Positions 1,609 to 32,379 of a stretch of 64,000 bases of DNA are shown one piece after another; position 1 is the stretch's first letter, and each line of letters opens with the position of its first letter. Below the pieces are notes generated by a model. That model saw only the letters and a list, made by a program, of their open reading frames with translations, was not told the DNA's origin and did no database searches. Origin of the DNA: an uncultured Elusimicrobia bacterium (lineage in GTDB: Bacteria; Elusimicrobiota; Endomicrobiia; Endomicrobiales; Endomicrobiaceae); contig CALGGE010000066.1 of assembly GCA_937916125.1 (NCBI GenBank), positions 27,908 through 91,907 of the forward strand, written 5' to 3'. A program made the position numbers and the translations under genes.

Positions 1609-1618
1609 TTTTTACTCC

Positions 1619-2209: not shown

Positions 2210-2220
2210 AAAAATTACTC

Positions 2221-3228: not shown

Positions 3229-3245
3229 AATTAAAATACTCCGTA

Positions 3246-4256: not shown

Positions 4257-4295
4257 ATAAATCTCCTTTAGAACTGCTTATAGTGACCGTGAATT

Positions 4296-4372
4296 TTAAA
4301 CTTTTCAACTATTCAACTTTTCAACTTCAACGACGAGATGCTTCGACAAGCTCAGCATGACAGACGAGACGA
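4296..4372. repeat. intergenic-type repeat block overlapping the 3' end of trpG
   Basis: TTCAAC-oriented oligomer array (CTTTTCAACTATTCAACTTTTCAACTTCAAC, 4301-4331) followed by the GAGATGCT-TCGACAAGCTC-AGCATGACAGAC hairpin element (4335-4368). Confidence 0.8.
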
Positions 4373-4932: not shown

Positions 4933-4942
4933 TTAAATCTCC

Positions 4943-6400: not shown

Positions 6401-6414
6401 TTTGCTACCTCGAA

Positions 6415-6742: not shown

Positions 6743-6748
6743 ATAATG

Positions 6749-6777
6749 ATTTTAGTATTATTTTTTTCCTTTGTCAA
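6749..6777 (-). promoter_or_regulatory. sigma70-type promoter of the T-box/trp operon
   Basis: The minus strand reads TTGACA (6772-6777), a 17-nt spacer, then TAAAAT (6749-6754). The predicted transcription start is a few nt before the start of the T-box leader. Confidence 0.6.
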
Positions 6778-6830
6778 GCTTTTGTATGGGTTCAATATGC
6801 ACACATATGAAAAAGCTCATATATCTTTCT

Positions 6831-8060
6831 TTATGCCCATAGAGAAGAGATAGGAACAGCAAATAAATTGTCTTTTTGTGAAATAATATTATTCCCTGTA
6901 TATAGAATAATTCCTATAAAATTTTTATTCTTAGCAATATTGTTTTTAAACCACTTCAAATGCTTAAAAGAATCATTGTCGATATTTACACCGGATTTTA
7001 CTTCTATTCCTAATAAATCTCCATCCGAATTTTCTATAACAAAATCAACTTCTCTGTTATCTTTATCTCTGTAATGGTATAAATTATATTCATTAAAGAA
7101 ACAATCTATATTTGAAGATAATTCATTAAAAACAAAAGTTTCTGTTAATTTTCCGACAATATCGGCACTTTCTCTTACTTTGTTAAAATTTAAATTCAAT
7201 AATGAGGATATTATTCCTGTATCACAAATATAAAGTTTATCTTTCTTGGTAACATATTGGTAATCGTTAATTAAATACGGATTGACTCTTTCTGCTAAAT
7301 ACATATTTTCAAGAATTGAAATATAAGTATCAAAAGTTTGTTTTGTTATTGATAAAGAGCTTAATATAGCATTTTTCTCCATATATTTTGACGACCAGCT
7401 TGCAAGAATTTTTAATAAATCTTTCAATGCAGATTGTCTTTTAATATTTGCTATATCTTTTAAATCGTTTTCTATTAATGTATTAATATAATTTAAATAC
7501 CAAATTCTTTTCTCTTTTAAGTCTTTGTCAAATGTTATAGGGTAACCTCCGTCGAGAGCCAATTGAATTATATCATCTCTTGTATAATTTCTTTTATTAT
7601 TTATAAAAATACCTTTGAATGCATTTTGCAAAAAAACAGGTTCTTTTTGATTTTTTTCTCCCTGAGAAAATGTTCTTAAACGGATTTTTTGAACTCTTCC
7701 TGCCAAAGATTCTCTTACAGCAGGATTTGCCTGAATATTAGAAGAACCTGTTATTAAAAATTGTCCATTATTATTATTCTCATCAACTACTTTTTTTATG
7801 GAAGAAATAAGTTCGGGAGCTTTTTGTATTTCATCAATAATCATAGTCTTTGACGATTTTTTTAAAAAACCATCCGGATCTAAATTTGCAAATTTTCTTT
7901 GAGAAAAATCATCAAGAGTTTTGTATGTGGAATTTTTTAATGAGGCAGATTTTGCCAATGTTGTTTTGCCACATTGTCTTGACCCTGTTAAAATAACAAC
8001 TCGGCTGTTTTTTAAAGCATCTCTTATTGAGTTTTCTTGCCATCTTTTATAAAGTTTCAT
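6831..8060 (-). CDS. AAA-family ATPase with C-terminal DUF4143-type domain
   Basis: Walker A is ILTGSRQCGKTTLAK. The C-terminal RDKDNREVDFVIENSDGDLLGIEVKSG is typical of the AAA_14/DUF4143 family. Start chosen at MKLYKR; an alternative ATG lies at 8075. Confidence 0.7.
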   Translation of the reverse strand: MKLYKRWQENSIRDALKNSRVVILTGSRQCGKTTLAKSASLKNSTYKTLDDFSQRKFANLDPDGFLKKSSKTMIIDEIQKAPELISSIKKVVDENNNNGQFLITGSSNIQANPAVRESLAGRVQKIRLRTFSQGEKNQKEPVFLQNAFKGIFINNKRNYTRDDIIQLALDGGYPITFDKDLKEKRIWYLNYINTLIENDLKDIANIKRQSALKDLLKILASWSSKYMEKNAILSSLSITKQTFDTYISILENMYLAERVNPYLINDYQYVTKKDKLYICDTGIISSLLNLNFNKVRESADIVGKLTETFVFNELSSNIDCFFNEYNLYHYRDKDNREVDFVIENSDGDLLGIEVKSGVNIDNDSFKHLKWFKNNIAKNKNFIGIILYTGNNIISQKDNLFAVPISSLWA

Positions 8061-15900: not shown

Positions 15901-16339
15901 CACTGTAATACTCGGCTCCTGTTAATCTTCCCGTTTCAAGGATTGTATCTAAAAGTTCTTCTTTTTTAGGGTTTTGGTTTATTTTGTCTGTCAACCAATT
16001 TGTGCTTACTTTACCGTAGGCACCTTCCAAATATATTTTGTTTATGCCGAATTTATTATCAAATGTTTCTATAATATTGCTTATATTTTTTTGTACTTTC
16101 GGATGACAGTGCAAATCCTGAATATTTATTATTACTCTGTCCGTTCCGGCATAATGAGCTTTTGTTATTTGTCCGTAACCGTACGGCAAAACAAAGTCAT
16201 CAAATATTTTACTATACCGATTTACTATTTCTTTGTTTATAATAATACTTGCCGTTGAAGGCTGAATTACAAATGATATTAACAAACTTATCGTTACAAT
16301 TAAAGAAATAAGTTTCTTAAATCTCATTATAATTTTCAT
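9977..16339 (-). CDS. giant membrane-anchored multidomain protein, paralog P1 (ChaN/TraB-like N-module; clan-CD-like His/Cys dyad; hydrophobic CPBP-like block; LLSAA tail)
   Basis: Start placed at MKIIMRFKK (GGAG 8 nt upstream); the track ORF extends to 16381. Signal/anchor peptide LISLIVTISLLISFVIQPSTAS. Motifs: INIQDLHCH (16103-16129), YLEGA, VVTGGFH (14903-14923), FIFDGHG...43 aa...SSCHS (12596-12748). TM block 11840-12070. No database search was run. Confidence 0.8.
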   Translation of the reverse strand: MKIIMRFKKLISLIVTISLLISFVIQPSTASIIINKEIVNRYSKIFDDFVLPYGYGQITKAHYAGTDRVIINIQDLHCHPKVQKNISNIIETFDNKFGINKIYLEGAYGKVSTNWLTDKINQNPKKEELLDTILETGRLTGAEYYSAKSGKTEIINGLEEKEPYLENLKRFGKIIENQEKIDLILKAIEEDSQKLKKQHYTKRQFKLENLSKKFKEDKLSPQKYYTLLSKHIDKLGIDLTKYENTFAYIMLLNMQSRLNFSKITEQMQSLLFFLKQILPYNTYKQLIDNTDNFSGVDKLYTYIIKLCRQENLDLSGKYSELDKYFRYIELSQKINPLDLISEEAKLTEEINTRFSETKVQRDIVFMTNFEKYLRDYVTGKITSDDYNYYKENIETYKRLWNKYADNRVLSMLDEYMDETDKFYKINNDRNLYFAKNLFNDDNKPAENHFDTKADNDINKIIANMKNVKKLDIVVTGGFHSNTVTEMLKEKGVSYIVITPNVSDGIDVAQKTYYQIAKEQSKISFQMIAPAVASISPSAQQIINDRLTYPQQKQKINELDDEERIQLISDLAAAKILESDDIGDIRETITEVVKATVDDLHKQKVTPELVSEIKNLQTLISNKENLQRVIDLLQKGTAKQSLLLISDMLDDLYKIFDSFEIFERGQKIISFLEETDDAERKEALSEENKIEFEKQADSASVEANVKDLQNKVVRASGFNRNIIDYIRNNQITSTTLLNKLLLEFTNINYDQKEIYCKIITLLEKEEYIYMFFNMDKISRNRFTDFYEYALDTYSDDISSIMLQVLLDIVKKNGYTISDFDKLYNYCEYRFIAELKTRENISDFLNLNSSIRNLIFDFYKKSEHDYSISFSPLKLKFILILAENFNYTQEDFNYLMKLITRADLKENSEVAEEYIESFKGKKVNGYILENFRYVEFYNRYVIDLLFSDFDVRYGRTFDFQKFVDLVDDLETYRIDSLDLENKAFSMSVFFSKAMEDYCKQNDIKDITRQYQLAIRVARRIYSISGDNIFSIPTYKIESIIADTLEYYNKLDAIIADLYLIVNKMAIFSIHNNEKNADGKTQRFTPVGIEEILKKLDVEPDLFEYIEISFADKVLDFINTKYTDEINVPELLEYLEKEKGSVVVKKDIVDYINRRKDQPLSKKTLLRYVKRMHVTETMVEANMFLHRIERFNEYGQEKGLFIFDGHGLDDEIFYSSGRGFTVKQISQALINAHDNGVNLRNITLMFSSCHSYKFAENVIKELINIGIDVFPQIITDAGKETVYAYTKTMDSDNKTIKVSNLFYSLIKLLDSKTPEELKQMNGKLSLKDVANAPRYLSNNTLFITNDQIDELNHSLVKSIRAVIEEDDDNKTTGRIYPIMEENGMYVDVNYNKYAQLMLPSTQNLLTKIGNSKIIKSIYKENSGKFFKTTKLGVAIGVLLETFVFWTPNFINAHNFPLSIQTKMTPVIWVIRALSIGIGIGTGSLFALFITETTAHFVWNYFATIKPSINNKFSEYVSGIIANIMPNLISKIKDVSYDTVKRVNLQYYTVSQFVSEIAGQMLFINELFDAVFKNRSGIFGIIDKNIVITEDYKQKDYLQSLAVAETNIIVVNMEIITEPTQTVRGGFILDVEKGIRVKYDKSDGKLTVYSKKGIDIDKRQLQDLITAAYYDTRKNDSFETAIVFADLEEQTLYSIQNKLKNEITNSITVPGKEIKLDISERNITDISAVCKNEEIASETKTFIISKAQAEKYNRELQRLQDAGYKFIISYDRSDEFSEVLFDGARIIAEDITEKEKALELLEKLKTIKLAKGIDTKISIKFSNEIYYGLYNVDIFDEYGIIPIVDDINGILFGKKEFDMSKLKNIERQISDDYFERILRMESFVSVVIDENTKMFINKNKSKFRRAETNEQKFKKGINAALSRKFDYTAKDVKQIIDSGILSVDIGNSNGYLREEILKLNLSLFSDDARTYIEYLTAKEKYEETVGFIRGVVMNTVAKNIANIIDIDENKLMKNIKTDTVQAILILTIQNILNGNTMEDIYKTKEIESEMTAKEFLDSIKIRLNGDLDNILRQNEYKITKVSPSAIADFTGIPELLMDTYGKKVSVVKSAEVSTQYIKSLLSAA

Positions 16340-16373
16340 ATTTTCTTCTCCAATAAAAAAACTTGTATTGTTT

Positions 16374-16913
16374 TTACACAATACAAGCCCTTTCTATATG
16401 TTTTTTATTATAATTTATTGATATAGATCTCGGTAAAACATTGAATAATATTTTCATCAGTAATAATAAAAAAACACTTAATCGCAGAGGTATTTTCAGT
16501 GGATAACTTTTTAATTCAGGTATAAAATTTGTTGAATTTTTTATTTTATATACAACAAAAATCAAGATTAAATTTAACATAGTAATTGTTAAGTTTGCCG
16601 TGCCTATATACTCGTTTATCTTTACAAAATTTTTGTTGCTATCTTTATTTGCTTTTTTTGTTTGATGTTTATTTTGTGCGGTTTGTGGAAACATTGTGGA
16701 TAAGACATCGATTGTCATATTTATTGATGCAAAAAATTTCCCTGCAACAGAACCGCTTGCCGAAATATTTTTCTTTTTAAAACAAAAAGACAAAGAAAAA
16801 ATATTCAACACAAAAAACAACACAACAAAAAACGATAATATTTTGGTTTTATAACCTGTTTCCATACTTAAATTATAATCTACAAACCTGATATTTTCAA
16901 GAATTTCTTGCAA
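16374..16913 (-). CDS. small hypothetical membrane protein (3 predicted TM helices), immediately upstream of P1
   Basis: 179-aa ORF with hydrophobic helices ILSFFVVLFFVLNIFSLSFCF, LTITMLNLILIFVVY and LSVFLLLLMKILFNVL. It is co-oriented with P1, with the stop 35 nt before the P1 start. I recognise no family. Confidence 0.5.
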   Translation of the reverse strand: MQEILENIRFVDYNLSMETGYKTKILSFFVVLFFVLNIFSLSFCFKKKNISASGSVAGKFFASINMTIDVLSTMFPQTAQNKHQTKKANKDSNKNFVKINEYIGTANLTITMLNLILIFVVYKIKNSTNFIPELKSYPLKIPLRLSVFLLLLMKILFNVLPRSISINYNKKHIERACIV

Positions 16914-17567: not shown

Positions 17568-20500
17568 TACGGTAAAGACTATGAGGCGGATAATATTTTT
17601 CTGATATTTTCGGTTATATTATCCCCGAAAATATAATCTGCAATTCTTAATATACCGGGATCAATTGCAGGACGTACGGGTTCAATTTCTTCCTTCTTAC
17701 AAGCTTTCATAAGCCCTGCGAGTAAAAGTCTTGCCTTATAAACGGTATCTTGTCTGTTATCCATATATCCTAAAGCATCTTTTGACAATATTGAAAAAGC
17801 TTCTTTAAACACCATTGAATCAGAATACAAACTGCCCGCCTTTACCTGAGAAGAATATAAATTTAAAATATTATTCCGTTTAGGACCTTGTTCATACTCG
17901 ATAAATTCATCCGGTTGTAAAGAAAAAACATCTTCAATATTCATTTTTTCCTTAAATAAAGATACGTGTGCCAACATTCCGTAAAAAATTTTCTGTCTCA
18001 TATCTGCTGCCTGCTGAGTATCTCTACTGACATACGGATTAACTACAAATTTAAAAACTTTGCCGAAATCACCCTGCTTGTATTTTCTTACAATATTTGC
18101 CTCGTATATTCCAAATAAAAAGCTGCTGCTTACGGAAATTCTTGTTTGTTTGGATTCCACAAAATAATCAAACAGATAAGAAAAATGTTCTTTCACATAA
18201 CTGCTTGCCGTAGTATCACTTTCGTTTCTTAATATCCTTGCTATTTCTTCCTCTTCCTGTTGAGATAAATTAACTTCCTGACGGGTTCCGTACTCATAAG
18301 CAAACCTCATTCTCTCTTTCATTCCTTTGGTTTCTTTAAACAATCTCATAAGATCCGATACGGCCTGTATTATATTGGAATTTTCTTTTGTATCTTCTTT
18401 TAATCGCTGTGCATATAACATATTTACCGGGATTATAAGTTTACCTATAGAATCACTGTTTATCACTTTCTGAAGAATTTCCTCAAGTCTCTCATCTATT
18501 ATATGATCCAAATAGACATCTTCCCCTTTTTCTGCAAGCAGAGCCAAACTTCCGGGATAACTGCCCTTAAGCAAAATACTATCTCTCTTGTTTGATAAAA
18601 ATACCAATCTTGTTTCATATTCCTGCTGGTCCTTATAAATTGAAATTTCATAATTCACATCGTTCATCTCCGACAAATCATATTTCCCTTCCATAAGAAG
18701 TTCTTCTTTACTTGATAAAGTTCTTGTAATTTTCAAATCATCAAAAAAATCTTTAAATTCATTCCAAACTTTATCGGCAACCTGAACAGAGATTTCAATA
18801 TCCGGAAGTTCATTTCTTATATTCTCAAAATCGTTTAAAACGGATTTAATATCTTCAATTGAACAATTTGCCAAGTCAAGTTTTATTCCGTCAACACCTA
18901 TATCATTTACGTCAACACTGATCGTTCTTACAAAAGTTTTAAAAAACTCGTCGAAAAATCTGAAAGTATATTCAAGCACCATTTTTTTACCGTTCTTATG
19001 TAAATTACCTGAAAGTTTGGTTAAATTTTCTTTTACCGTAGTTTCTCTGTTTAAAACACGAACATTTAAATTATTGTCTCTGATAACAACTGTTATAAAA
19101 TCTATATCACTGCCATTTAATATTTCAATAAATTCATTTTCTTCAAGTTCATTATTAAAAATATGTTCATCTGAAGCTATTTTTACACCTACATAAGAAG
19201 ATTTTTGCTCGAAAAATTCGCCGAAGAAAGATTTTCTCTTCAAAGCTTTAACGGCTTTTACATTTTCTGCAACCGCTCTCATATCTTCGGCAACATGAGG
19301 ATATTTCAAATCTTTTCTTCCTATTCTTGCAATAATATCTTCTATATTTACTACGGTATCGTATCCCATAACTTCCATTTCTTTTTCGTTTTCGGAATTT
19401 TTGCTTAAAACTACAGGTATATAAGTTTTGCCAAGAACCGACAGTGTCTGCCTTGCAGGTATTTGCGGAAACCCGTTAAAAGAAATAATACTGTTCTCTT
19501 CCTGTACTAAAAATTGCTTTGCATATTCCAACAAAACATCCTGCCAAATTAAACGTGTATCGGAAATTCCGACCAATATAATGATACCGTTATTATTTTT
19601 TAAAACATATACGGGTATTTTAACACCGTTCTTTTCCAAAATTGTCGGGTTACCATAAACTTCCTCTTCCAAAACGGAATTCTTAACGGGAACTATCGTT
19701 AAAGATAAAAAACCGAGTTTTACTTTAGCGTTAACGGCTTCTCTGATTCTTGCAATATCCAAAGTATCTGCTACATCCGACTCAATGGCAATCCAATTTC
19801 CTTTTTCAAATTTTGAGACCGTAGTATTAAAAAAACTTCTCACATTTGAATACAACTCTATAAAAACTCTCTTTAAATTGTCGTATATATACGTAACTTT
19901 ACCTTTTTTTATTGAAGGATTCTGAAGAAGTTTTTCCTCAACATTTAAATTTTGCATTTCTTCTCCTTCGTAAACATAAATTACATTTTCCTGCCATGGG
20001 AAACCTGCTTGAGTAAGCATTCTGTCAAAACTTTCCTTTCCATAATTATATGTAGCCATTAACGTTTCCAAATATGCCTGTTCGTTATGACCTCTGTTTC
20101 CCTCCGGGTACATTACTATCGTCAAACCGTCAATTTTTAAAACTTCTATTTTTTCAACATCTTTTGCCGTTGATCTTTTATACCAAACATCAAATATTTT
20201 ATCATCTTTTAAATCGCCGTAGATAATATCGGAAAATTTATCGGCAATAGAATCATCCTGAAAATAAACAGCAAGCTCTTTCAGCAAATATCCGGGCATA
20301 AATACAATAGAATCTTTACCGGACTTTGAATATTCCAATGCCTTATCCATAAAAGCTTTAAATTCTTCATTGGCTAAAATTTGCTCTTCCGGATGACTAT
20401 CATAATTACTTAATTTTTTATAGGTATATTTAACGGATTCCACGGGCCATATAAAAACAAATGTTTTATTTTCAAAATTCGGGAAAAAAGTCGTCAAAAC

Positions 20501-22110
20501 ATCTTTCAACCAATTGCGTTCTTTATAAGGGTATCTTATAATCGTTCCGTCAGATCTCATATAGTTGTGTTTATTCTGTCTGTTTACGGAAAACTTGGAC
20601 GGGAACAATCCGTAAAAAGGAATATCCGTATATAAAAATGTTGCAGATGTCATAATATCCGTAAACAAACTTTGAGACTCTTCCGACATAAAAAATGCGG
20701 AATCCTGTTCATCCAGCAGGGACATATCCAAGCATACATTTCGGTTCAACAATCCGTTACTTTCAAGAAACTCTTTAAAAGCTTTTGCATTTATTTCTTT
20801 ATTGGAAATAAAACTCTTAAATTTTGATATATCAGCATAAAAAACATTATTGCTATTGTAAATAAGTTCCGAACGTTCCTCAATTTTTTCAACATCAGAC
20901 CACTTTGTATATTTACCGTAAAAAACAATAACGGGATAAGTGTTGTCCCGGTTCCAATCTCTTTCAGAAGCCAAGAAAATTTTTCCTTTATTCAGTACGG
21001 ACACAAGTTCGTTTTTTTTCTTATCTGCAGAAGAAAAATCGGTTTTTAGAACTTTATATATTTTAATTATACCGTTTTCTCTTACAACTTCAAAGTCTCC
21101 CTCTGCCTGAATATCAATATCAAGCTCACCGATATCCGTCATATCAATATCTTTAACCGTAACGGATGTTTTATCGGAACAATTTATTTTAAAAATACTG
21201 CCATCAGGTATATAAACATTATTCAATGTTATTGTACCGTGCAGAGAAACTTCGGCATTTTGTTCGATGACGGTATCAACAAATACAACCTTTTCCAAAT
21301 CAGTATCTTTCGTATCGGCACCGTTATTTACCAGACCTTTCTTTTTTACTTCTTTAGTGTAAGCAGCTCCCCCGCCCGGAACGGCACCGACAACAAACAT
21401 CATCGGAAGCATTAAAACCATCTTCGTAAACAGCGACAAATTTCTATGTAAACGTTTTATTCTTCCCGGCTTTTGGGAACCCGTACTATTATCGACAAAT
21501 TCTTCTTCCCGTAAATTTGTTATTTCGTTTCTGTTATTGATTTCCTTTACGGTATTTTTCGACACATAAAACAGACGTTCTTTATTCTCAGACAAGAACG
21601 TCAACAAAAATCCTTTTTCGACAACTTCAATATTTTTCAGAACGGTATCATCGTCTAAACCTTTGGCATTAAAAATATCGGAAATATATTTTTGAACGAC
21701 AGACACATTTTCTTGTACCGTTTCAATATTCTTGTAACGGTTAAAAAGTTCACTGAGCAAATCATAATCCAAAAAGCCGACTGCTATAACCTTTGTAGGA
21801 TCATCCCAACTTTCGTTCATCAAAGAACTTCTTATAAATTTCTGATACGTATTGTTCAATATTGAAAGCTGTCTCATATAATCTTCATAAAATTTACTCT
21901 TACTTTCAATAACATCAACAGATTTTACGTTAGGCATAATAACGGCATAATTGATATCAAGTCCGTCCATAAGTTGTTTCATTCCGCGACTGTGATATCC
22001 TCCGGTTATTATGATATCTACAGGCTGATCCGTAGTTTTTAATATTTCTTCAAAAGACATTCTGTTATTATTTTTTATAACGGCTCTGTTTGCCGATTCT
22101 TCTTTATTTA

Positions 22111-22117
22111 TTTTTTT
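22111..22117 (-). other. A AAA AAA slippery heptamer followed by a 0-frame TAA, at the junction of P2 fragments B and C
   Basis: The minus strand reads CGG TTT ATA ATA AAA AAA TAA. The -1 frame continues ATA AAT AAA GAA GAA TCG ... directly into the 1,493-aa ORF. Confidence 0.7.
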
Positions 22118-22838
22118 ATTATAAACCGTCTCAAGAATATCAAATTCTTTTCCGTTAAAGTTTGTGAGAAAGATGAATATAAATCGGTTAAAATGATTTG
22201 TTCTTCATTTAACAATTGTACTAAATCAATATCATTCTTATTTTGCAAATAATCACAAAATATATAAAAATTTTTATATTTTTTACCGTAATTTTCATCA
22301 GAAGAATTATCATCCAAATATTTTTTTATTTCTTTATAGTATTGTAACGGATAATTCTTATTCAACTCTTTTATTTTTGAGTATTTATGATATGTCATTT
22401 TGTCAGCAAGAACGATGTTTATATCAAACAACTCTTTTTTAACTTTATTAAAGTTCAAATCTTTATAATATTTTTCCAAATCCAAATACTTTCTTATTGT
22501 CTTATATTTAAATAACGGAATATTTCTCTTTTTAGAAAGAGAAACAAGATATGAAAAATATTTAGACTGTGAAATGTACCCTTTCTTATAGCAATCAACA
22601 AGTTCGTCGAGACTTTTGACTGCAAAGCTGCAGACAAATGTTTTGGCATCATTTAAAACAGACGATATATCGAAAATTTTATTTTCAAGTAAAATTCTGT
22701 TTTCATATATTTTTGACAATATAATAAAATTTTCTTTATAAATATTTTCTTCTTCCAATCCCTTAAAATTTATTTTTTCGTTTTTATTAAAAATTCCGAA
22801 ATATTCCGCACCTGTTATTTTACCGTCAGTAAGCATTT

Positions 22839-22902
22839 TGTAAATAATATTGTTTCTGATTTTTTCATCTTGTAAATAATATTGTTTCTGACTTTTTCAT
22901 CT
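22839..22902 (-). repeat. 32-bp tandem duplication that frameshifts P2
   Basis: Plus strand: TGTAAATAATATTGTTTCTGATTTTTTCATCT (22839-22870) and TGTAAATAATATTGTTTCTGACTTTTTCATCT (22871-22902), with 1 mismatch. Removing either copy joins ...DEKVRNNIIYK to MLTDGKITGAEYFG in frame. Confidence 0.9.
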
Positions 22903-23286
22903 TTTACGGCTTTAAGCCAGTTGAAATCCAAATCTTTTACGGCACCCTCAAGATATATATTTTCAACATTATAATTTTTTGTCAAAAAATCCAAAATTAC
23001 GGCAATATTTTCCTGAGTATTTTTATCGGAGTGCAAATCCTGTATATTAATCAACGTTTTTTCGGCACCTATATATACATCATCAATAACCTTACCTAAG
23101 TCGGCGGGGATAAAATAATCCGCATTATCAACACTTACGGAAGTAATATTTACGGGTGCAATAACCGATGCACAAATATCACAACATATATAATTAACAA
23201 TACAAACCGTTAGAATACATGAAATCAGTTTTTTGTAATTATACATATTTTCTCCGTGCTGCAAAATATATAAAAATTTTACTGTT

Positions 23287-26200
23287 TTATGCTGCGGAAA
23301 GAATATTTTTAATATTATCAATATATCCGTCGGACTGACCGAAGCTCGATGTATCAAATTCTTTTATTGTTACAGGCAATAAGCCTATTTCTCCGCTCTT
23401 AAAATTAAATATACCGCCGTTTAATTTAGCCAACACCGTGCGATCTTTGTTTATTCTGTTGACAAGTATATTTTCCAATACACCGAAACCTAATAATTCT
23501 TCATATTCGGAAGGAATAATAAACCTTGCACTTTTTTGTTCTCTTGTTTCCAAATATACGGGTATGGACTGCGTATCATTAAGAGGGTTGGGAAGATGAA
23601 TAAAAGCCTGTTGTTGCGAATCCGCATTCCCCGCACTTAATGATATTTCATATTTAGTGTCATGTTGGACCGTAATAACATTTTCTTCCGAAACATCCTC
23701 TTCATTAACTGCATTTGTGGTAACAGGTCTTCTTTGAAGAATAAAAAGTTTACCGTCTTTAAATCCGAATTCAACATCAACGGCATAAAAAACATCGTCT
23801 TCCAATAATAACAGAACTTTAATAAGTTGTTTTATTTCTTCATAATTTAAAGTTCTTTCTTTTGCACCTTTATCCACAAAAGTTAATTTTACGCCTTCCC
23901 GTGTTGAAACTATTTTATAATCTTTGGTTGCAACGGAGTACTCCAATACATTCCCTGTTTCCATATTTACGGTTATTGTATCGGGAGTAAGTTTTCCCGA
24001 AACTATACCCTCTCCCAGTCCGTAAAGAGTTTCTATTGTGGTATTCCCGTATTTGTCTCTGCTGAAAGCAACTCCCGACTTATCAACATCTATCATAGTC
24101 TGTACCAACACCGCAGGAGAAACGATTTGTCCGCTGTTTATCATATATTTTATGCTTCTTTCTGAATAAAAGGATTCCCAACAGCTCAGCAAGGCATCAA
24201 AGAGATTTCCTCTGTCAACATTCAATACTGTTTCCCCCATACCGGCAAAAGCATTGTTTGCACTGTCTTCTCCGACACCGGAAGAACGTACGGAATATTT
24301 TGAATCTCCCAACGTTTTTAAAACCATATCTTCCAGTTCTTTCCTTAAAGAATCGGTTTCCTTAATTTTATTTTTGGAGTTTTCAATAAGGGAGATTATA
24401 ATTTTTGCGAAATTTTGAGCTAACTGATATTCTCCGTTATTTATCGCATTTTTAAAAGATTGTGAAAGCATTAAAAATTGTTGTTTCTGTCCGAGCATAT
24501 CAAAGAACCTCACAAAAACATCATAACTTATGCCTACACCTTCGGGAACAACTACATTATCTTCTTTTTCCAACAATCTGTGTATTTTTGCCAGTTCAAC
24601 GGTTTTAGAACCGAATTTATAAGAATCCCGTTCATATATATCATCAAAGCTCAGGATATCTCCTTTCGGACTATATACTCCGTAATTATAAGTACCGTAG
24701 AGTCTTAATTTTAACAGGTTTATAACATTTTCCGTATCGGTTTTTAATTCCTGCAAATAAGCATCTTCTTCAGTTTCCGGTATAAACATTTCATTCACAT
24801 TTGCCAATTGCAACATACCGACAATCTCATTTAAATCTTCCGGCAAATATTCATATTTTTCCAGCATAGTTCTGCATTCTTTTAAAAATACTTTCAAAAA
24901 TACAATTAAACTCTCTTTCGTATTTTGTGAAATTTCAAAAACTTCTTTTCTAATCATATCCAATTCTTGTCTGTATTCCGGAGATTTTATAAACTCCAAT
25001 TTCTCAAGCAAAGTCCTTACTATGGAATAGGCTATATTAGGATTGGCGGTTGTTTCCAAATTAGTTACGGCTTCATTCATAACTTTTACTTTATCCTGAA
25101 TATAACTTTCGTTCAGTTCTTTAATTTTATCTTTTATGGTTTGCGGCATATCCTGAGCAAAAAGCATATCCAAAGTTTGTGCCATTCGCGTATCACCGAT
25201 AGTTTGAAAATATATATATTCAACAATTCTTCCTATATTTTCAGCAACCGAATTTTTTATTAAGAAATCTTTTATATTTTCGGCGTCATCTTTTTCTATA
25301 TATGACTGTAAAAGTTTTAATGTCGAATCTTCTATATCGTCAAAAAGAAGTATATGTCCGGTTTCTCCGTTTAATAAAATAATAGAACCTTCACGTAAAA
25401 TTTTATCTTTGCTTTTGACTTTTCTTATACTTAAATTACCCAATTGAAAAGGATTTCCCGAAGAATAATAACATAAAATATTCAAACCCTTATCTTTCCA
25501 ACTTGCACCGTTAATAATAACCGACGGAGTATGATATTCCCTTGTAGTAATTGCGGCATGGCTTAAAACTCCTCCGCTTGTGGTTATTATTGCTTTTGCG
25601 GTTTTAATTCTTTCTACATCGTCGGGCGTAGTATAAGGTGCTACAAAAATGCTGTTTCCGTCAACATTATTCTTGTCAAACGTTACATATCCGGAGACAT
25701 ACGTACCGTTGCCTGCAGATATAGGTACGGCTCTGAGTTCCGGAGAGGAAAGGTTCTGTGTTTGTCTGTGAAGAAGATTGCTTATTCTATCCTGTTCCGA
25801 CGGACTTAACAGTTCCTGCCGAGGAATATCAAAACCTTCGTTACGTAAAATTTCGTAAAGTTCTTCAAATGTAACGGATTTTCTTCCCGAAAGAGAAACA
25901 TATTCCACAACGGAATATTTTAACCTTTTTATGGATGGTTTCGTAAGTCCTTTTACCGATAAAAAATCGCCGTTTTGCAGTTTCATATAACCGCTTACCG
26001 CCAATAAATCACCTATGTAACCGATAGTTTTGAATTTAAAGTTTGTATTCGGAATAAGGTTTATCAATTTACTTTTATTTATAGCGGCTTCTTCATCATC
26101 GGAAACGGCTTCCGCCAAATAAGAAACAACGTCATAATCTTTGTTTCTGCTCAATATACCGTTCTCATTCAAAAAAATTCTTCCTACGGCAAAACTTCTT

Positions 26201-29200
26201 TCTATAACATTATTGAACATATCATCCAACACATTTTGGGTTACTCTGAATCCAAACTCTTCAGGTATATCGTCGATCAAATCCAAAGATTGCAATACTT
26301 GTTTTAACCAATTCTTATCAAGGGAATTTCTTTGCGGACGAGCGGTAATTTTGTTTTCCGGCCATCCCGTAACCCCGTTCGGCATATATCCGTACCAAAT
26401 ATCTCCTTCCATAAATTTTTCAACCAAACTGTCAAAAGTTCTCCTGTAAGAATCCTCGCTGTATCTGTTGGACAATTCATCCAAATCCCAATCAAGCATA
26501 ACGGAATAACTGAACAAAGATACAACTTTAGTTGCAATATCTATAAAATCCATATCTTTATTAAATCCGTAATCCGTACTTAAAGTTGCTTTTAAACTGT
26601 ATGCGGCATCATTGCCCGCAGGTCGATTTATATCATTTTCCACAAAGAAACCGAATTTTTCCAATATCGTCGAGAAATATCTTATTCTTTCGGCGTTTCC
26701 GGTTTTCTTATCGCTTTCATGATAAGAGATGGTTATGGTTTTATCGGTATCAGCAAAATTCATAAATATATCAACACTGTGTGCAAACAATCTTGTCGTC
26801 CATACCAACAAATTATCCATACAAATAAAATCATCTATCTGATATTCATGTTTCTCTGCGGTTTTTTGTCGCGGGAGCTTATTTTGGGATAATCTTCCAA
26901 TAAAATCAAGTATATCCGGATTTAATTTATTTTCCGACAAATCATAAAGTTCCACTCCCGTTCTATCCAAACCGCCGGTATCCGAATATCCGATTGAAAT
27001 ACGAGGATTTCGATGAACGGCAACAACCGTTTTTATTGCTTTATCGCCTATTTCTATAATATCCTTTACTGTCTCTTTGAAATCCGAGATCGACGTTTGA
27101 TGAACCGCATTTATAAGAGTATGTATTTCGGTTATTTCCTCTATATGTTCGCTGTTCCATTGTTTTAAAGCCATATTCCGTTTTATCATATCTTTTGTCA
27201 AACTTGTCGTAAATAAAAGTTCTCCGTCCTGTTCCGGACGTATCGACAAATTATATAAAATATTGTTCAATGCGGTACGTGCATAATTCCCGTGTTCGGG
27301 ATTTATTAAGCTTAAAGATACTATCATTTTAGATAAAATTTTTACAAGTTCCGCAAAATCTTTTTCGGGATTTTTCGATGCAGACAAACCGTCAAGCAAA
27401 GATAAAACAAGATTGTTGTCATTAAGTATCGACTGCAAAGTATTGAATTTATCTCTTATTATCGCAACTTCTTTATTTTGTTTATTCGTAGTTCCGCTTA
27501 CGGTATAAAGTATGGGCGGTTCCTGCAAAATTATATTACCTGAAGTAAACATATCTTTAGGCAAATATTTTATGAGACGGGAAAATCTGTATTGTCCTCT
27601 CATCTCCGAAACAAACGCATCGGATACCGGCTTCAAAAAATAAGGAAGGTTGTTTTCCTCACATAATTCATTAAGCCTGTTTATGTCAAACAGATTATAA
27701 TTCTGCAAAGAAATATACAGCTCGGTCGAAGCCATATTAACAAGTTCGGATATAACATATCTTCTTGTTTTGTTATCAATATTTTTATTTTCCAAAATTA
27801 ACAACAATTTTTTTATTACGGATATTGCCAATACACGTCCGTTTTCTTTTTTACCGAGCAAATCATTACAAAACGACGATAAATCAAATAAAGTACAGTT
27901 ATCGACAACAATTTCCGCAAGGTCTTCGACATCGGATATAAGACTGTCTTTTTCAGGTAGCGGAATGCTCACATTCTTAATATTTGCTTTATAAACCGCA
28001 TCAACAAATCTTTGAAGCGTTTTCCTATTTAATCCCGGACCGTATATTGTACTCGTATCGTCATTCCAAGAATTTCTCTTGGCAGGATCTTCAACACCCG
28101 TATTTGCAAACATATAAGAATAAACAGAAATGTTTTTGGGATTTTTTTTCGAAAGTTTTTCAAACACATTATAGAACGTTTTTTCTCTTGATACGTATTC
28201 CAGAGAATTTTCATCCAAAGTATTTTGAGCAATCGGAGTATACACGACAAGGAGAAGCCGTTCCGTTATACCATTGCAAATATAGGTGCCGAAATCTTTA
28301 ATATCATTATCTTCCGAATTATAAAATTTACCGGAAATATCCATCATACCGTCAAGCAATCCGTAGAATTTTTCATTGTCGGAATTAACATCATACGAGT
28401 CAAACAGTATTTTAATCAAACTGTCCAACATCGTTTTTACGGTTCTTGTTCCGGTTTTCTTTTTTACTTTTGTAAAATCAAAAATAAACGGCAAAAAATA
28501 AGTTATACTATCTTCTTTTTGTTCCTCTTGTTTCAATATTATTTTCAACAACTCTTCCAACAATGTTTCCAGAAGGATACTGTTGCCGTCGTTAATTTTT
28601 TCAGCCAATTCTTCCATATTTGATAAAATTTCGGATACTCTTTCTCTATCCTGTTCCGCCGTAAAAGGTAATGCCTTTTCTCTGAAAACTCTGACATTAT
28701 TCGAAAGACTTTCGGAAAGAGATTTATCGACTTCTTTACCATCGGAAACGGCAAAATAATATTGTTTTAATGCATCATAATCTTTCAAATTATTTTGAAT
28801 TTGATACGGAATATCTTCATCTTTGGAAATAAATTCTCTGCTCAACAATTTATTTATTCCGTAAGGAATAAAATCCGAATTAATTTTATATGTTTCTCCG
28901 ATAAATTTGGAAACGTCGGCTAAGACAATATATTTGTCTCTTAATTTTCCTTTATGTATAAACAGAGAATCAACCATATGATAGAAAAAAGAATTGTTTG
29001 ATTTGTAAACATCTTCAAGTGCTATGAAAGGAATTAAAGAAAAAAGTAAAAAATCACTCATGTAAAAACTGCCCCAATTATCTATACCGTTCTGCTCGCA
29101 AAAAACTTTAAGCTTTCCGTAAACGGTAGAAACATCATTATAGTCGCCGTCTCTGAAATAATATTGGGGTTGATAATTGTGTCTGTTATTTTCTTTTACC

Positions 29201-32200
29201 AAATCAAGTATGGCATCTATTTGTTCAACGACGATTTTATATCTTTCAACTTTTTGTTCGGGCAAATTCGATAAATTTTTTATAATCTTTTTTACTTCGG
29301 CATAATCATATCCGTCAAGTAACGACAGTATTTCAATTATCCTGTCAACAACACTTTGTTCAACAACCGGAACGTCCGACATTTGTTCAATGTCTTTGGT
29401 TTGATAGAATTCATCACTTAATTGTTCTTCTTCATTTTTATCATCTTTGCTGCCGGTTATAACGGACAACATATCATTAAACCGACCTCGTGTTAAAGCT
29501 CTTATATTATATATTGAATGTAAAACGGTTGTAACAATCGGTGCCAAAAGCATATACTGAGGGAAAATAAACGACAACACTATATAAATCCAAGTCAACG
29601 ATGTTGCCGGAGAAAGCAAATCTTTCCAATCTCTTTTTTGGGAACTTTTTGTAATTATATCGTTCAACGTATGTGCGTAAGCAAATCCGATTGTTCCGGT
29701 AAATGCGGTTACAATCGCAGGAATTATCGGAAAAGGAGTTGTAAATACAAACGTGGTCAGCAAAATAAAAGGTGCGGCTCTAAAAATACCTTCTTCAATT
29801 ACTGGAGCGACAACAATTGTATAAATTAATCTGACAACATCACTTGCGTTCTTAAAAAAATTTTTCGCTATTACCAAAGGTTGACTTTTAGGATAAATCC
29901 TTGTCGTTAAGAAATCCTTGTCTCCTGTAGAAGATACATATCCGCCTTTCAACGTAAAAGATGTCTTTATTTTAGCAAGTTCGCCGGCTTTATTTATTTC
30001 ATAAATTTTTTCGTTCAGCAGTCTTATAACTTCGGCAAGTTTTTCCTTTGCCTGAGGCGTATCCTGAAAAAGGGATTCATCAAAAATTCTTCCTATGGTC
30101 ATATGCACTATTTTCGGAACTCTGTAATTCGGATCAAGATTTTCAAAATCTTTACGCAAGTTCAACATTTGTGCAATCAAATCCGTATCGGTAATCGTAT
30201 AAATTAAAACACCGTCGGGCATAAGCTTCAATGTACCTGCAAGAGATGTTTTAATACTCGGAAAAGTTTCTCCCAAGTTTTGGGTTGCCGCAAAAATGGA
30301 ATGAGTTTTGTTTTGATAAAGGAAGGACTCATCCATTTGTTGCGGCGTTGCACCTGACGAGTCATAGCCCACCGTCATGTGCAGTTGTTTATAAGGCATT
30401 AAGGAGACGGCGTCTCCCGATATTTCGCTTAAAGGTTTAAGAATATACCTGTATAATTTTTTCCTTGCCGATGTTGCAGGTTCAAGCTCTAAGGACGGAG
30501 CTGCATATTTATTTGCTTTAATCCTTTTAATCATATTAACGGTTTTTTCGATATCAATATTCGCATATTCCTTAATTTCTCCGTCGGAATAAATATAATT
30601 TATCGTACTTTCGGTACCTTTGTTAGCGTTATCTCTGTATTTAACAACAAACTCCACATTGCCAGTTTTAACTTCCGAAGATAAAATTTGCCATTCCAAA
30701 ATTTCAACATTACCGTAAAAAGTATTTTGTTTATCAATAATTTTTTCCGCTATAATTTGATAAATTTCCCGCTTTAAATCTTCTTCGGAATAATTTTGAA
30801 AAGCCTCACTTTGTACGGCATAAAAAAAACCTTCCATTACTTTCCTAAAACTGACATTTAAAGGTTCTTGCGTCAACGGTTCTATGTTTATGGTATTTTC
30901 AAGTATTGAAGAATAATATAAAACATTGTCCGTATAAAGTTGTCTTGCCGCTTCGGTTGATTCCGTTACTTTCGGAGTTATTATTACGTAAGATACTTTC
31001 TTGTCCAGAAAAATTCTCTCCAGTCCTCTTGTATGAAATCCTCCTGTAACAACAAGCGATATTTTCCTTGAAGGAGTTTGCGTCGAAAAATCGGAAGATT
31101 GACGAATGGCAGAGAAAAAGATTTGATCTCTCAAAATATTGTTTCGGTGATACTTGGACAGCAAGTCATAATACGTATCCAAACTTTGTATCGGTTGACT
31201 CGGCAAATACGACGGCCAAGTTGTCTTGAATTTTTTGTACCCTTCTTCAAAATTATAATATTCATCCGAAGAAATTTCTGCGGTAAAATAATTTCTTATT
31301 ACGGGAACGAACTCTGCAAGAAAATTAACTTCTTTTTCGTATTTTGTTCTTCCCGCTTTTATGTAAAGTTCATTTATAAAATCTTCTTTTTCTTTTACAA
31401 GTTCTATCGGATTTATTATGTCGCTTACGGCAAGCGAAGCAAAAAAACTTTCAAGATTCTTAAGTTTTAAATTTTTGGTTATTTCAAATTTATTGTTAAG
31501 TTTTATTAAATCGTAAGAAATATTTTCAAAATCGGTAAATTTATTACTTCTTTTAAAAAGTTCGGAGTAGCCGTCATAGTCAAGCTTATTTTTAAGTGAT
31601 GAAACAAAGCGGGCAAATTCACCGGAGATTTTCCCGTTATTTATAACATCGGTTTTGTCAAACAATGAAATATACAAAGATAAATTTTTATATTTTTCAA
31701 CTGAAACATCAAGATCTTCGGCAAGCCTGATTAATTCATTATAAAAACTCTTCGTCTTAATTTTTTTATTATCATACAAACTTATAATTCGTTGTATCTT
31801 TCTCGCTTTAGGGCTTGCATAATCTTTCCTGACTGAATTTATCTCTTTTTCAATATTTTTGCATACGGCTTCAATCTCTGGAGAAAGTGTTATTATTTCT
31901 CCCAACAGTTTAATATTTTCTTTATATAAACTTTCATTTTCTATACCGGCGACAAAATTCTTCTTATTTTTTATCGTTGAATAATATTCCGTTCCGCTTA
32001 AATTACCGGAATTCAAAAGATTTTCTACGATTTTTACACCGAATTTATTATCTTTCAATTCCGAAAGCCACGAAGTATCGACGATATTAAATGCTCCTTC
32101 CAAATAAACCTTATCAAGTCCGTATTTTGTATCGAGATATTCCAATATCGAAAAGATTTTCTTCTGTGTTTCGGCGTGACAATGAAGATCCTGAATATTT

Positions 32201-32379
32201 ATGACAATGTCCCCGTCATCAAAAATTTTTGACGAAGTTATTTTTCCCAAAGATGAGGGTATGAATTGTTGCATACCGTCAGAGAAACGTGCAGGCACGG
32301 CAAAACCGCCCTTTGGAAACAGTGTAATAACCAAAGAAAACGAAATCATTAAAGAAACTATCTTTTTAATCATTTTCAT
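23287..32379 (-). CDS. giant membrane multidomain protein, paralog P3 (ChaN/TraB-like N-module, 2H phosphoesterase, CPBP intramembrane protease, phosphohistidine swivel domain, PPDK-type ATP-grasp, ILSAA tail)
   Basis: 3,030-aa uninterrupted ORF. Signal peptide: MKMIKKIVSLMISFSLVITLFPKGGFA. N-module motifs: INIQDLHCH (32176-32202) and VVTGGFH (31033-31053). 2H motifs: LHMTVGY (30364-30384) and VHMTIGR (30088-30108). CPBP motifs: EEGIFR (29779-29796), FAYAH and HSIYN (29506-29520). Swivel domain: TTSGGVLSHAAITTREYHTPSVI, with His at 25558-25560. ATP-grasp: FGSKTVELAKI...VRSSGVGEDSANNAFAGMGETVLNV...GLGEGIVSG (about 23700-24690). Confidence 0.85.
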   Translation of the reverse strand: MKMIKKIVSLMISFSLVITLFPKGGFAVPARFSDGMQQFIPSSLGKITSSKIFDDGDIVINIQDLHCHAETQKKIFSILEYLDTKYGLDKVYLEGAFNIVDTSWLSELKDNKFGVKIVENLLNSGNLSGTEYYSTIKNKKNFVAGIENESLYKENIKLLGEIITLSPEIEAVCKNIEKEINSVRKDYASPKARKIQRIISLYDNKKIKTKSFYNELIRLAEDLDVSVEKYKNLSLYISLFDKTDVINNGKISGEFARFVSSLKNKLDYDGYSELFKRSNKFTDFENISYDLIKLNNKFEITKNLKLKNLESFFASLAVSDIINPIELVKEKEDFINELYIKAGRTKYEKEVNFLAEFVPVIRNYFTAEISSDEYYNFEEGYKKFKTTWPSYLPSQPIQSLDTYYDLLSKYHRNNILRDQIFFSAIRQSSDFSTQTPSRKISLVVTGGFHTRGLERIFLDKKVSYVIITPKVTESTEAARQLYTDNVLYYSSILENTINIEPLTQEPLNVSFRKVMEGFFYAVQSEAFQNYSEEDLKREIYQIIAEKIIDKQNTFYGNVEILEWQILSSEVKTGNVEFVVKYRDNANKGTESTINYIYSDGEIKEYANIDIEKTVNMIKRIKANKYAAPSLELEPATSARKKLYRYILKPLSEISGDAVSLMPYKQLHMTVGYDSSGATPQQMDESFLYQNKTHSIFAATQNLGETFPSIKTSLAGTLKLMPDGVLIYTITDTDLIAQMLNLRKDFENLDPNYRVPKIVHMTIGRIFDESLFQDTPQAKEKLAEVIRLLNEKIYEINKAGELAKIKTSFTLKGGYVSSTGDKDFLTTRIYPKSQPLVIAKNFFKNASDVVRLIYTIVVAPVIEEGIFRAAPFILLTTFVFTTPFPIIPAIVTAFTGTIGFAYAHTLNDIITKSSQKRDWKDLLSPATSLTWIYIVLSFIFPQYMLLAPIVTTVLHSIYNIRALTRGRFNDMLSVITGSKDDKNEEEQLSDEFYQTKDIEQMSDVPVVEQSVVDRIIEILSLLDGYDYAEVKKIIKNLSNLPEQKVERYKIVVEQIDAILDLVKENNRHNYQPQYYFRDGDYNDVSTVYGKLKVFCEQNGIDNWGSFYMSDFLLFSLIPFIALEDVYKSNNSFFYHMVDSLFIHKGKLRDKYIVLADVSKFIGETYKINSDFIPYGINKLLSREFISKDEDIPYQIQNNLKDYDALKQYYFAVSDGKEVDKSLSESLSNNVRVFREKALPFTAEQDRERVSEILSNMEELAEKINDGNSILLETLLEELLKIILKQEEQKEDSITYFLPFIFDFTKVKKKTGTRTVKTMLDSLIKILFDSYDVNSDNEKFYGLLDGMMDISGKFYNSEDNDIKDFGTYICNGITERLLLVVYTPIAQNTLDENSLEYVSREKTFYNVFEKLSKKNPKNISVYSYMFANTGVEDPAKRNSWNDDTSTIYGPGLNRKTLQRFVDAVYKANIKNVSIPLPEKDSLISDVEDLAEIVVDNCTLFDLSSFCNDLLGKKENGRVLAISVIKKLLLILENKNIDNKTRRYVISELVNMASTELYISLQNYNLFDINRLNELCEENNLPYFLKPVSDAFVSEMRGQYRFSRLIKYLPKDMFTSGNIILQEPPILYTVSGTTNKQNKEVAIIRDKFNTLQSILNDNNLVLSLLDGLSASKNPEKDFAELVKILSKMIVSLSLINPEHGNYARTALNNILYNLSIRPEQDGELLFTTSLTKDMIKRNMALKQWNSEHIEEITEIHTLINAVHQTSISDFKETVKDIIEIGDKAIKTVVAVHRNPRISIGYSDTGGLDRTGVELYDLSENKLNPDILDFIGRLSQNKLPRQKTAEKHEYQIDDFICMDNLLVWTTRLFAHSVDIFMNFADTDKTITISYHESDKKTGNAERIRYFSTILEKFGFFVENDINRPAGNDAAYSLKATLSTDYGFNKDMDFIDIATKVVSLFSYSVMLDWDLDELSNRYSEDSYRRTFDSLVEKFMEGDIWYGYMPNGVTGWPENKITARPQRNSLDKNWLKQVLQSLDLIDDIPEEFGFRVTQNVLDDMFNNVIERSFAVGRIFLNENGILSRNKDYDVVSYLAEAVSDDEEAAINKSKLINLIPNTNFKFKTIGYIGDLLAVSGYMKLQNGDFLSVKGLTKPSIKRLKYSVVEYVSLSGRKSVTFEELYEILRNEGFDIPRQELLSPSEQDRISNLLHRQTQNLSSPELRAVPISAGNGTYVSGYVTFDKNNVDGNSIFVAPYTTPDDVERIKTAKAIITTSGGVLSHAAITTREYHTPSVIINGASWKDKGLNILCYYSSGNPFQLGNLSIRKVKSKDKILREGSIILLNGETGHILLFDDIEDSTLKLLQSYIEKDDAENIKDFLIKNSVAENIGRIVEYIYFQTIGDTRMAQTLDMLFAQDMPQTIKDKIKELNESYIQDKVKVMNEAVTNLETTANPNIAYSIVRTLLEKLEFIKSPEYRQELDMIRKEVFEISQNTKESLIVFLKVFLKECRTMLEKYEYLPEDLNEIVGMLQLANVNEMFIPETEEDAYLQELKTDTENVINLLKLRLYGTYNYGVYSPKGDILSFDDIYERDSYKFGSKTVELAKIHRLLEKEDNVVVPEGVGISYDVFVRFFDMLGQKQQFLMLSQSFKNAINNGEYQLAQNFAKIIISLIENSKNKIKETDSLRKELEDMVLKTLGDSKYSVRSSGVGEDSANNAFAGMGETVLNVDRGNLFDALLSCWESFYSERSIKYMINSGQIVSPAVLVQTMIDVDKSGVAFSRDKYGNTTIETLYGLGEGIVSGKLTPDTITVNMETGNVLEYSVATKDYKIVSTREGVKLTFVDKGAKERTLNYEEIKQLIKVLLLLEDDVFYAVDVEFGFKDGKLFILQRRPVTTNAVNEEDVSEENVITVQHDTKYEISLSAGNADSQQQAFIHLPNPLNDTQSIPVYLETREQKSARFIIPSEYEELLGFGVLENILVNRINKDRTVLAKLNGGIFNFKSGEIGLLPVTIKEFDTSSFGQSDGYIDNIKNILSAA

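Follow-up and report, generated by a model that had tools for sequence, protein, structure and literature searches.

The P3 gene, in a 64,000-nucleotide stretch of contig CALGGE010000066.1 from an uncultured Elusimicrobia bacterium (assembly GCA_937916125.1; hereafter the window), encodes a protein of 3,030 amino acids in which residues ~1741–3030 probably constitute a self-contained, three-site His-swivel dikinase. We judge from its sequence that this unit is likely to be a permuted, lineage-restricted branch of the phosphoenolpyruvate (PEP) synthase (PPS), pyruvate, phosphate dikinase (PPDK) and rifampin phosphotransferase (RPH) enzymes and not a member of the glucan water dikinase (GWD) family. 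It comprises, in this order, a domain that we term Xc, a phosphohistidine swivel domain, a helical linker domain and a nucleotide-binding ATP-grasp domain with a C-terminal tail (Table 1). We refer to this unit as the cassette.

An initial annotation of the window had recognized both a swivel and an ATP-grasp domain in P3, and Pfam places both well above their cut-offs. PF00391 (PEP-utilizers) covers residues 2241–2340 (E = 3e-12; 46.4 bits, cut-off 23.1; E = 3.7e-14 with the swivel fragment, residues 2150–2350, as query) and PF01326 (PPDK_N) covers residues 2589–2896 (E = 2.6e-51; 175.3 bits, cut-off 27). These coordinates confirm that the swivel precedes the ATP-grasp, the reverse of PPS and PPDK, and, as had also been proposed, no PEP/pyruvate TIM barrel is evident: PF02896 gives no match across P3. 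All of the peptides quoted in that annotation occur in P3 (GNGTYVSGYVTF from residue 2223, SHAAITTRE from 2273 and KFGSKTVELAK from 2588), and the codon assigned to the catalytic histidine is exactly that of His2274. Some details have to be revised. The spacer between the swivel and the KFGSK motif is ~240 residues, rather than ~290, and forms a folded helical domain in our model; P3 does not end in the ATP-grasp, which is followed by a conserved tail of ~135 residues; and the ATP-grasp is of the PPS/RPH type, not the PPDK type, according to NCBIfam, PDB sequence search and Foldseek.

For a conservation count we extracted 69 cassettes of 990–1,193 amino acids from 44 homologues. In this set 57 positions are kept in at least 95% of the cassettes, including G2269, S2273, H2274 and E2281 of the swivel and G2590/K2592, the VRSSGxGED motif (R2698), D2868/E2870 and Q2882/R2884 of the ATP-grasp. 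Because its key residues are conserved at this level, the P3 cassette looks catalytically competent. The D-x-E ... Q-x-R spacing in P3 equals that of the Mg/ATP residues of PPDK. P3 also has, as T2266-TSGGVLS-H2274, the T/SxxGGxxxH motif known from the swivel of HpeH, RPH and PPS (PMC12167813).

The best-scoring NCBIfam models are those for PEP synthase, RPH-like 'PEP synthase', RedH/PigC and RPH, and they always align to two separate stretches of P3. That top models carry the name phosphoenolpyruvate synthase could point to an ordinary PPS or PPDK scrambled by a wrong gene model, or to a decayed and inactive remnant. P3 falls far under the cut-offs of the full-length PPS/PPDK models (173 bits versus 883), only two of their domains are covered, and the reading frame is uninterrupted. 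With the TIM barrel missing, the domain order kept in ~140 clusters and the catalytic residues all conserved, we regard this explanation as refuted and give it almost no weight. The gene model itself agrees with database protein P0001, which is identical to P3 save that its start lies two residues further in. We considered whether homologues of 4,800–4,900 amino acids correspond to P3 plus the three ORFs downstream of it (3030 + 1915 ~ 4945) and rejected this, since a second cassette accounts for the additional length. A normal domain order does not emerge on checking the gene model.

Residues 1741–2940 were modelled with AlphaFold2 (AF2) from an alignment of 35 family members, giving a mean pLDDT of 81.5 and a pTM of 0.75. 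The linker domain is all-helical in this model, with pLDDT mostly 76–93. In Foldseek searches of the PDB the ATP-grasp matches RPH (5hv1, E = 6e-17; isolated ATP domain 5hv6, target-normalized TM-score 0.80–0.83), PEP synthase (2ols) and HpeI (9goj, E = 5e-13), and PPDK more weakly. The PDB sequence search agrees, with RPH as the best match of the ATP-grasp (phmmer E ~1e-31). The modelled swivel matches the phospho-carrier domain of PPDK (2fm4) with a target-normalized TM-score of 0.67.

The order Xc, swivel, linker, ATP-grasp holds in 44 of the 44 full-cassette proteins among the 120 homologues listed, within which the linker varies from ~110 to 250 amino acids. The cassette occurs once, twice or three times per protein. 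A single-cassette layout like that of P3 is found in P0022–24, P0030–32, P0036, P0037, P0039 and P0040, and the 4,800–4,900-residue homologues carry two cassettes, some with a second CPBP membrane block between the copies. Only 139 proteins were recovered from 1.84 billion representatives with a profile of XcN, the N-terminal half of Xc. Mapping with family hidden Markov models shows that nearly every match of sufficient length has the same order, XcN, C-terminal half (XcC), swivel, linker (50–400 amino acids), ATP-grasp. A few matches that open with a partial ATP-grasp look like pieces of multi-cassette proteins. In P0202 an ATP-grasp comes before Xc and the swivel, a possible normal-order variant, on a gene that runs off its 4.8-kb contig. 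With just the ATP-grasp as query, a search for homologues yielded 8 fragments and nothing else.

The homologues belong to the Elusimicrobiota (Endomicrobia, 'Ruminimicrobiellum' and Endomicrobium). When a strict motif from the Xc alignment was scanned against 185,579 species, each represented by a single genome, 28 loci were confirmed, every one of them in Elusimicrobiota; a scan of the genome collection with a single cassette protein as query found nothing. The nearest genome locus to P3 is in an uncultured Endomicrobia metagenome-assembled genome from red deer, with 80% identity over Xc, where the cassette gene is preceded by a 418-residue ORF equal in length to obg. Since more divergent members lie on contigs of 50–65% G+C, the range of the cassette probably extends past gut Endomicrobia. 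We found no paper describing the Xc cassette in the literature that we searched on giant proteins and bacterial GWD-like dikinases.

Several of the more divergent members are stand-alone cassette proteins that lack both the Nt module found at the N terminus of P3 and any hydrophobic segment (P0184, 1,397 amino acids; P0222, 1,325 amino acids; P0228; P0149). The cassette would therefore be an autonomous soluble enzyme in some organisms. In P0184 a stretch resembling the C-terminal tail of P3 follows the ATP-grasp.

The third domain of the cassette, Xc, is ~460 amino acids long and obligately associated with the dikinase domains. L1755-I-N1757, H1760-Q1761, S1815, H1867 and R1898 are among the 57 positions conserved at the 95% level in the cassette set; no tyrosine of Xc attains this threshold. 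Modelled alone with AF2 (pLDDT 78, pTM 0.65), Xc is an α/β domain in two halves with ~13 strands plus helices. Foldseek searches with this model gave no match at E ≤ 0.001 in the PDB, in a copy that may predate the GWD1 structure 9HA9, or in BFVD, and PDB sequence and profile searches with residues 1000–2200 and with an Xc profile gave no match either. Weak, scattered Foldseek matches to protein-kinase-like or APH folds (E = 0.06–0.6, TM-score ~0.1) were judged non-significant. A TIM barrel, a rifampin-binding domain and a GWD1-like helical domain are each ruled out for Xc by the model and the searches. In particular, we detected no rifampin-binding-type substrate domain: the Foldseek alignments to RPH span ~330 columns, corresponding to the ATP-grasp, and Xc alone has no RPH match. 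From its position, conservation and co-occurrence with the dikinase domains, we propose that Xc provides the acceptor-binding site.

We infer the chemistry of the cassette, the role of Xc and the kind of acceptor as follows. The C-terminal ATP-grasp would bind Mg-ATP, and His2274 of the swivel would attack the β-phosphate, with the γ-phosphate leaving as Pi, to give AMP and His~P. Short connectors link the swivel to the domains on either side, and it would next rotate to Xc immediately upstream and pass the phosphate to a hydroxyl acceptor at a putative site comprising N1757, H1760, Q1761, S1815, H1867 and R1898. The net reaction would be ATP + acceptor-OH + H2O -> AMP + Pi + acceptor-O-P. With slightly less than even confidence we favour a macromolecular acceptor, which could be a polymer (glucan or envelope) or the side chain of a protein and would form a phosphomonoester. 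A small-molecule acceptor seems to us possible, if rather unlikely.

Genes outside the cassette family provide independent evidence that Xc is tied to dikinases. On three contigs (L030, L031 and L032, about positions 1073–6873) three Xc-like paralogues of 438, 395 and 261 amino acids come directly after a gene for an 820-residue protein with PPDK_N and PEP-utilizers domains. The 820-residue protein is like a truncated PPDK that retains the ATP-grasp and swivel but has no TIM barrel. A GNAT gene lies a few genes further on. These contigs also encode ribosomal protein S19e, which is of archaeal or eukaryotic type. Another stand-alone Xc-like gene is followed by one for a low-molecular-weight protein tyrosine phosphatase (LMW-PTP; motif CSGNSDRSP; L035, 1582–1770). 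LMW-PTP-type domains are also recurrently fused to the cassette: the CX5R motif of LMWPc is present in 17 of 140 cassette proteins (for example P0159, P0161, P0162, P0164, P0166, P0174 and P0201). The phosphatase often lies between swivel and ATP-grasp, where the linker is the insertion site, and sometimes just after the ATP-grasp or after the second CPBP block; the precomputed Pfam order of P0166 is PEP-utilizers, LMWPc, PPDK_N. That a dikinase is repeatedly fused to a phosphatase speaks for a product that is a phosphomonoester and undergoes turnover.

The phosphatase fusions bear on three different views of the acceptor. The first is that the cassette is a protein-directed, regulatory phosphotransfer module like VadK, with Xc as a docking domain or target and the LMW-PTP erasing the mark. 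In VadK, which sets a precedent, an ATP-grasp and a swivel that have no TIM barrel with them act as a regulatory kinase (PMC13400623). The recurrent fusion of LMWPc, which is named for protein tyrosine phosphatases, would fit such a role, as would the three Xc-like paralogues that adjoin the truncated PPDK-like gene with GNAT nearby, and the ADP-ribosylglycohydrolase gene that starts 4 nt after the gene for P0222 (L033, 4062–5624, on a 65% G+C contig). However, the invariant His, His, Arg, Ser, Asn and Gln of Xc, among which there is no tyrosine, suit a catalytic or phosphate-binding site more than a substrate motif. We consider this view improbable. A related and equally speculative idea is that the cassette is the 'writer' of a hitherto unrecognized, reversible phosphorylation of macromolecules with the β-phosphate of ATP. 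The phosphate would go to an envelope or storage polymer or to a side chain of a protein, for example of tyrosine, with the fused LMW-PTP as 'eraser'. If this were true, the system would be built into membrane-anchored giant multi-enzyme proteins of the Elusimicrobiota, and Xc would be a new phosphoacceptor-binding fold.

The second view is that the cassette is a small-molecule dikinase of the RPH, HpeHI or PpsAB kind that phosphorylates an antibiotic, a phenolic or a metabolite. Its ATP-grasp is indeed nearest to RPH, the RPH-like 'PEP synthases', the prodigiosin ligases RedH and PigC, and HpeI. LMW-PTPs hydrolyse aryl phosphates, the class of compound that HpeHI and PpsAB make. HpeHI, moreover, has its subunits arranged in the order of the P3 domains (PMC12167813). 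Set against this, Xc is dissimilar to the rifampin-binding domain and to the substrate domain of HpeH, and tandem cassettes in membrane-anchored proteins of 3,000–5,000 amino acids are unlike any known small-molecule dikinase. On balance we think that a small-molecule dikinase of this kind is unlikely, while deserving some weight.

The third view, close to the interpretation first put forward for P3, is that of a bacterial GWD analogue phosphorylating glycogen, another α-glucan or a glucose-based envelope polymer at the membrane. The domain order is that of GWD1, the units are of similar size and a TIM barrel is missing from both. Paralogues sharing the Nt module of P3 carry PGI, PGM, UDP-glucose pyrophosphorylase, a GT2 cellulose-synthase-like enzyme, GH77 4-α-glucanotransferase and trehalase, a glucose-polymer theme. 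Plants pair GWD with SEX4, a pairing that the fused CX5R phosphatase would parallel. Kinship with GWD does not follow from these likenesses. A query with a peptide from the His region of GWD retrieved nothing but exon fragments of 60–76 amino acids, which led us to PF22973 (GWD1_pHisD), the family of the GWD His domain. PF22973 does not match residues 2150–2350 of P3 even at E ≤ 10, and only PF00391 does, whereas plant GWD fragments used as positive controls match PF22973 at 4e-19 and 2e-29. No carbohydrate-binding module (CBM) family, including CBM45 and CBM20, and no other carbohydrate-binding family was found in the 3,030 residues at a Pfam E ≤ 1, a search that a very divergent CBM could escape. 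Xc is α/β instead of all-helical, the ATP-grasp is nearest to RPH, PPS and HpeI, and the neighbours of stand-alone cassettes are GNAT, ADP-ribosylglycohydrolase and LMW-PTP genes, not carbohydrate enzymes. Domain order and the missing TIM barrel thus survive from the GWD interpretation and the family relationship does not; a GWD analogue in function strikes us as doubtful. Nor is the order peculiar to GWD and phosphoglucan water dikinase (PWD), the enzymes to which the initial annotation had likened it: it matches theirs, but HpeHI, CreHI and PpsAB are further precedents (PMC12167813).

The P3 cassette lies behind the family-wide Nt module and a CPBP-like (Rce1-like) block, which would tether it to the membrane. 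The CPBP block scores below the cut-off of PF02517 (E = 0.0029; 18.3 bits, cut-off 22.4), but all three motifs (EExxxR, FxxxH and HxxxN) are present, their columns are kept in the homologues, and PF02517 is precomputed for P0025 and P0026. The initial annotation had the enzyme anchored by this block. The motifs upstream of the cassette support that, while the sub-threshold score tempers it and the soluble stand-alone cassettes indicate that tethering is not intrinsic to the enzyme. Since soluble homologues exist and ATP is needed, we infer that the cassette works in the cytoplasm.

Several points weigh against our overall interpretation of the cassette as a cytoplasmic dikinase with a new acceptor domain, outside the GWD family. 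Xc has no detectable relative of established function in PDB sequence, profile or Foldseek searches. Common ancestry of the P3 and GWD ATP-grasp domains is possible. Judged by the hydrophobic N terminus, the Nt module may be outside the cell, and hydropathy gives 4 or 5 helices for the CPBP block, a count that decides the side on which the cassette lies. An odd count would put the two cassettes of a homologue on opposite sides of the membrane wherever a CPBP block separates them.

Table 1 Features of the P3 gene. Module boundaries were drawn from Pfam, from motif and hydropathy reading and by mapping segments onto homologues; positions are those of the window.
Feature	Residues	Position	Strand	Basis or remark
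Whole gene P3	1–3030 plus stop codon	23287..32379	-	single ORF; identical to database protein P0001
N-terminal hydrophobic segment, candidate signal peptide or membrane anchor	3–28	32296..32373	-	hydropathy scan
Nt module (DLHCH at 64, GGFHTRG at 446)	30–640	30460..32292	-	common to many Elusimicrobiota giant proteins
Two-HxT region (LHMTVGY at 666, VHMTIGR at 758)	641–840	29860..30459	-	read from sequence
CPBP / Rce1-like membrane block (EEGIFR at 862, FAYAH at 899, HSIYN at 954)	841–975	29455..29859	-	motifs, hydrophobic segments
Unassigned Xa/Xb region	976–1740	27160..29454	-	partial conservation among homologues
Xc, α/β, proposed acceptor-binding domain	1741–2200	25780..27159	-	always directly upstream of swivel
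Phosphohistidine swivel domain (motif T2266-T-S-G-G-V-L-S-H2274)	2201–2350	25330..25779	-	PF00391, Foldseek
Catalytic His2274 codon	2274	25558..25560	-	kept in at least 95% of 69 cassettes
Helical linker domain between swivel and ATP-grasp	2351–2585	24625..25329	-	AF2 model
ATP-grasp nucleotide-binding domain	2586–2895	23695..24624	-	PF01326, Foldseek, residue conservation
C-terminal tail, conserved	2896–3030	23290..23694	-	matched at C terminus of most complete homologues

The remainder of P3 is less readily assigned. Neither Pfam nor PDB searches (sequence and profile, query residues 30–1000) gave a match for the Nt module, and the Xa/Xb region has no Pfam or PDB sequence match. The two HxT motifs are 92 residues apart and resemble a 2H phosphoesterase signature by motif only; their region has no Pfam match and is missing from some homologues. 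Genes for obg, ribosomal protein L21, birA and an aminotransferase lie 5′ of P3, which therefore sits on a bacterial chromosome. The window has a G+C content of 34.5%.

The Nt module is all that 69 of the 120 homologues listed share with P3. These proteins (P0052–P0120) are Elusimicrobiota proteins of 1,700–5,300 amino acids in which an Nt module of ~500–600 residues is combined with varied enzyme cargo. Besides PGM and the other carbohydrate enzymes named above (the trehalase as trehalase/GH63), the cargo includes adenylate and cytidylate kinases and NUDIX, RelA/SpoT, HD, RNase J-like, APH, Pkinase and methyltransferase domains. Taken together, the PGI, PGM, UDP-glucose pyrophosphorylase and GT2 cargo would make a complete route from fructose-6-phosphate to glucan. 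We found no description of this giant-protein family in the literature searched.

Two further members of the Nt family lie in the window. Just downstream of P3, three ORFs of 180, 242 and 1,493 amino acids (17579–23357, minus strand) represent one disrupted Nt-family gene: the 180-residue ORF matches Nt residues 5–106 (E = 7e-18), the 242-residue ORF matches Nt residues 93–329 (E = 6e-13) and the 1,493-residue ORF starts at GGYHSRG, the counterpart of GGFHTRG in P3. It is either a pseudogene or the product of frameshift errors in the assembly. A 2,134-residue ORF (9977–16381, minus strand; database protein P0115) opens with an Nt module (E = 4.5e-67), and Pfam assigns no domain to it. P3, the disrupted gene and the P0115 gene are therefore three Nt-family giant genes in tandem. 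Elsewhere in the window, a 5,562-residue ORF (46986–63674, minus strand) has no Pfam match, no Nt module and, in a repeat scan, no tandem repeats. The G+C fraction rises to 0.42 at 48–52 kb of the window, where both strand skews are strong (GC about −0.35, AT about −0.3).

His-swivel dikinases are so far known for four types of acceptor (pyruvate, glucans, rifamycins and phenolics), each served by a different third domain. The Xc cassette would add a fifth third domain, without a detectable relative and in a permuted order. The rarity of the cassette (139 clusters among 1.84 billion representatives), combined with its strict catalytic conservation, therefore points to an unrecognized phosphorylation reaction. 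It also appears that a GWD-type order arose outside plants from canonical bacterial domains, a finding of relevance to the possible assembly route of GWD. Among the Elusimicrobiota giant proteins with a common N-terminal module, a large and apparently undescribed family, the cassette is one cargo.

Compared with known systems, P3 shares with PPS and PPDK a homologous ATP-grasp and swivel with conserved ATP/Mg residues. Those enzymes are arranged as ATP-grasp, swivel and TIM barrel, whereas P3 has the reverse order and no TIM barrel. The regulatory Thr that PPS and PPDK have two residues before the catalytic His, the role of which has been described (PMC12167813), is a Leu in P3 (VLSH). VadK (Rv1127c) is a PPDK-derived autokinase with ATP-grasp and swivel and no TIM barrel that acts outside PEP metabolism (PMC13400623); it retains the order and domain types of PPDK and lacks Xc, whereas P3 is permuted and contains Xc. 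Giant multi-enzyme membrane proteins are also known from the Omnitrophota, where PPDK_N and NUDIX are among the commonest domains of the 'archaeovorin' proteins (bioRxiv 10.1101/2023.11.21.568195), but these belong to another phylum and are much larger than P3.

RPH (LmRPH, PDB 5HV1/5FBS) provides the best match to the P3 ATP-grasp and has the GGxxxH swivel loop, a three-domain logic and no TIM barrel. Its order is ATP-grasp, rifampin-binding domain, swivel, whereas that of P3 is Xc, swivel, 235-residue helical linker, ATP-grasp. The rifampin-binding domain is unrelated to Xc, and the P3 cassette sits in a giant membrane protein and is often tandemly duplicated in its family. In HpeHI, CreHI and PpsAB (phenylphosphate synthase) one subunit contains the substrate-binding and swivel domains and the other the ATP-grasp, and the HpeHI-type dikinase mechanism passes via a β-phosphohistidine (PMC12167813). 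Read as H then I, these enzymes have the order of P3, and the HpeI structure (9GOJ) is a Foldseek match. They are split into two proteins with an RPH-like substrate domain, whereas P3 is fused and its acceptor domain has no detectable relative.

GWD1 consists of two CBM45 domains, an all-α central domain (residues 483–926), a His domain (residues 931–1050, with His992) and an ATP domain (residues 1069–1387) that is closer to RPH than to PPDK (PMC13553574). GWD1 and P3 are thus alike in having a central domain (~440 residues in GWD1) followed by the His domain and a C-terminal ATP-grasp. They differ in that the His domain is PF22973 in GWD and PF00391 in P3, the central domain of GWD1 has 20 helices (PDB 9HA9/9QVI) whereas Xc is α/β in its AF2 model, and the His-to-ATP linker is short in GWD and 235 residues long in P3. 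GWD and PWD are plant and algal enzymes, whereas P3 is bacterial and membrane-anchored. We conclude from these sequence comparisons that P3 would resemble GWD and RPH in mechanism, yet is apparently not a GWD, and that the order common to P3 and GWD is most likely an independent permutation of a modular enzyme.

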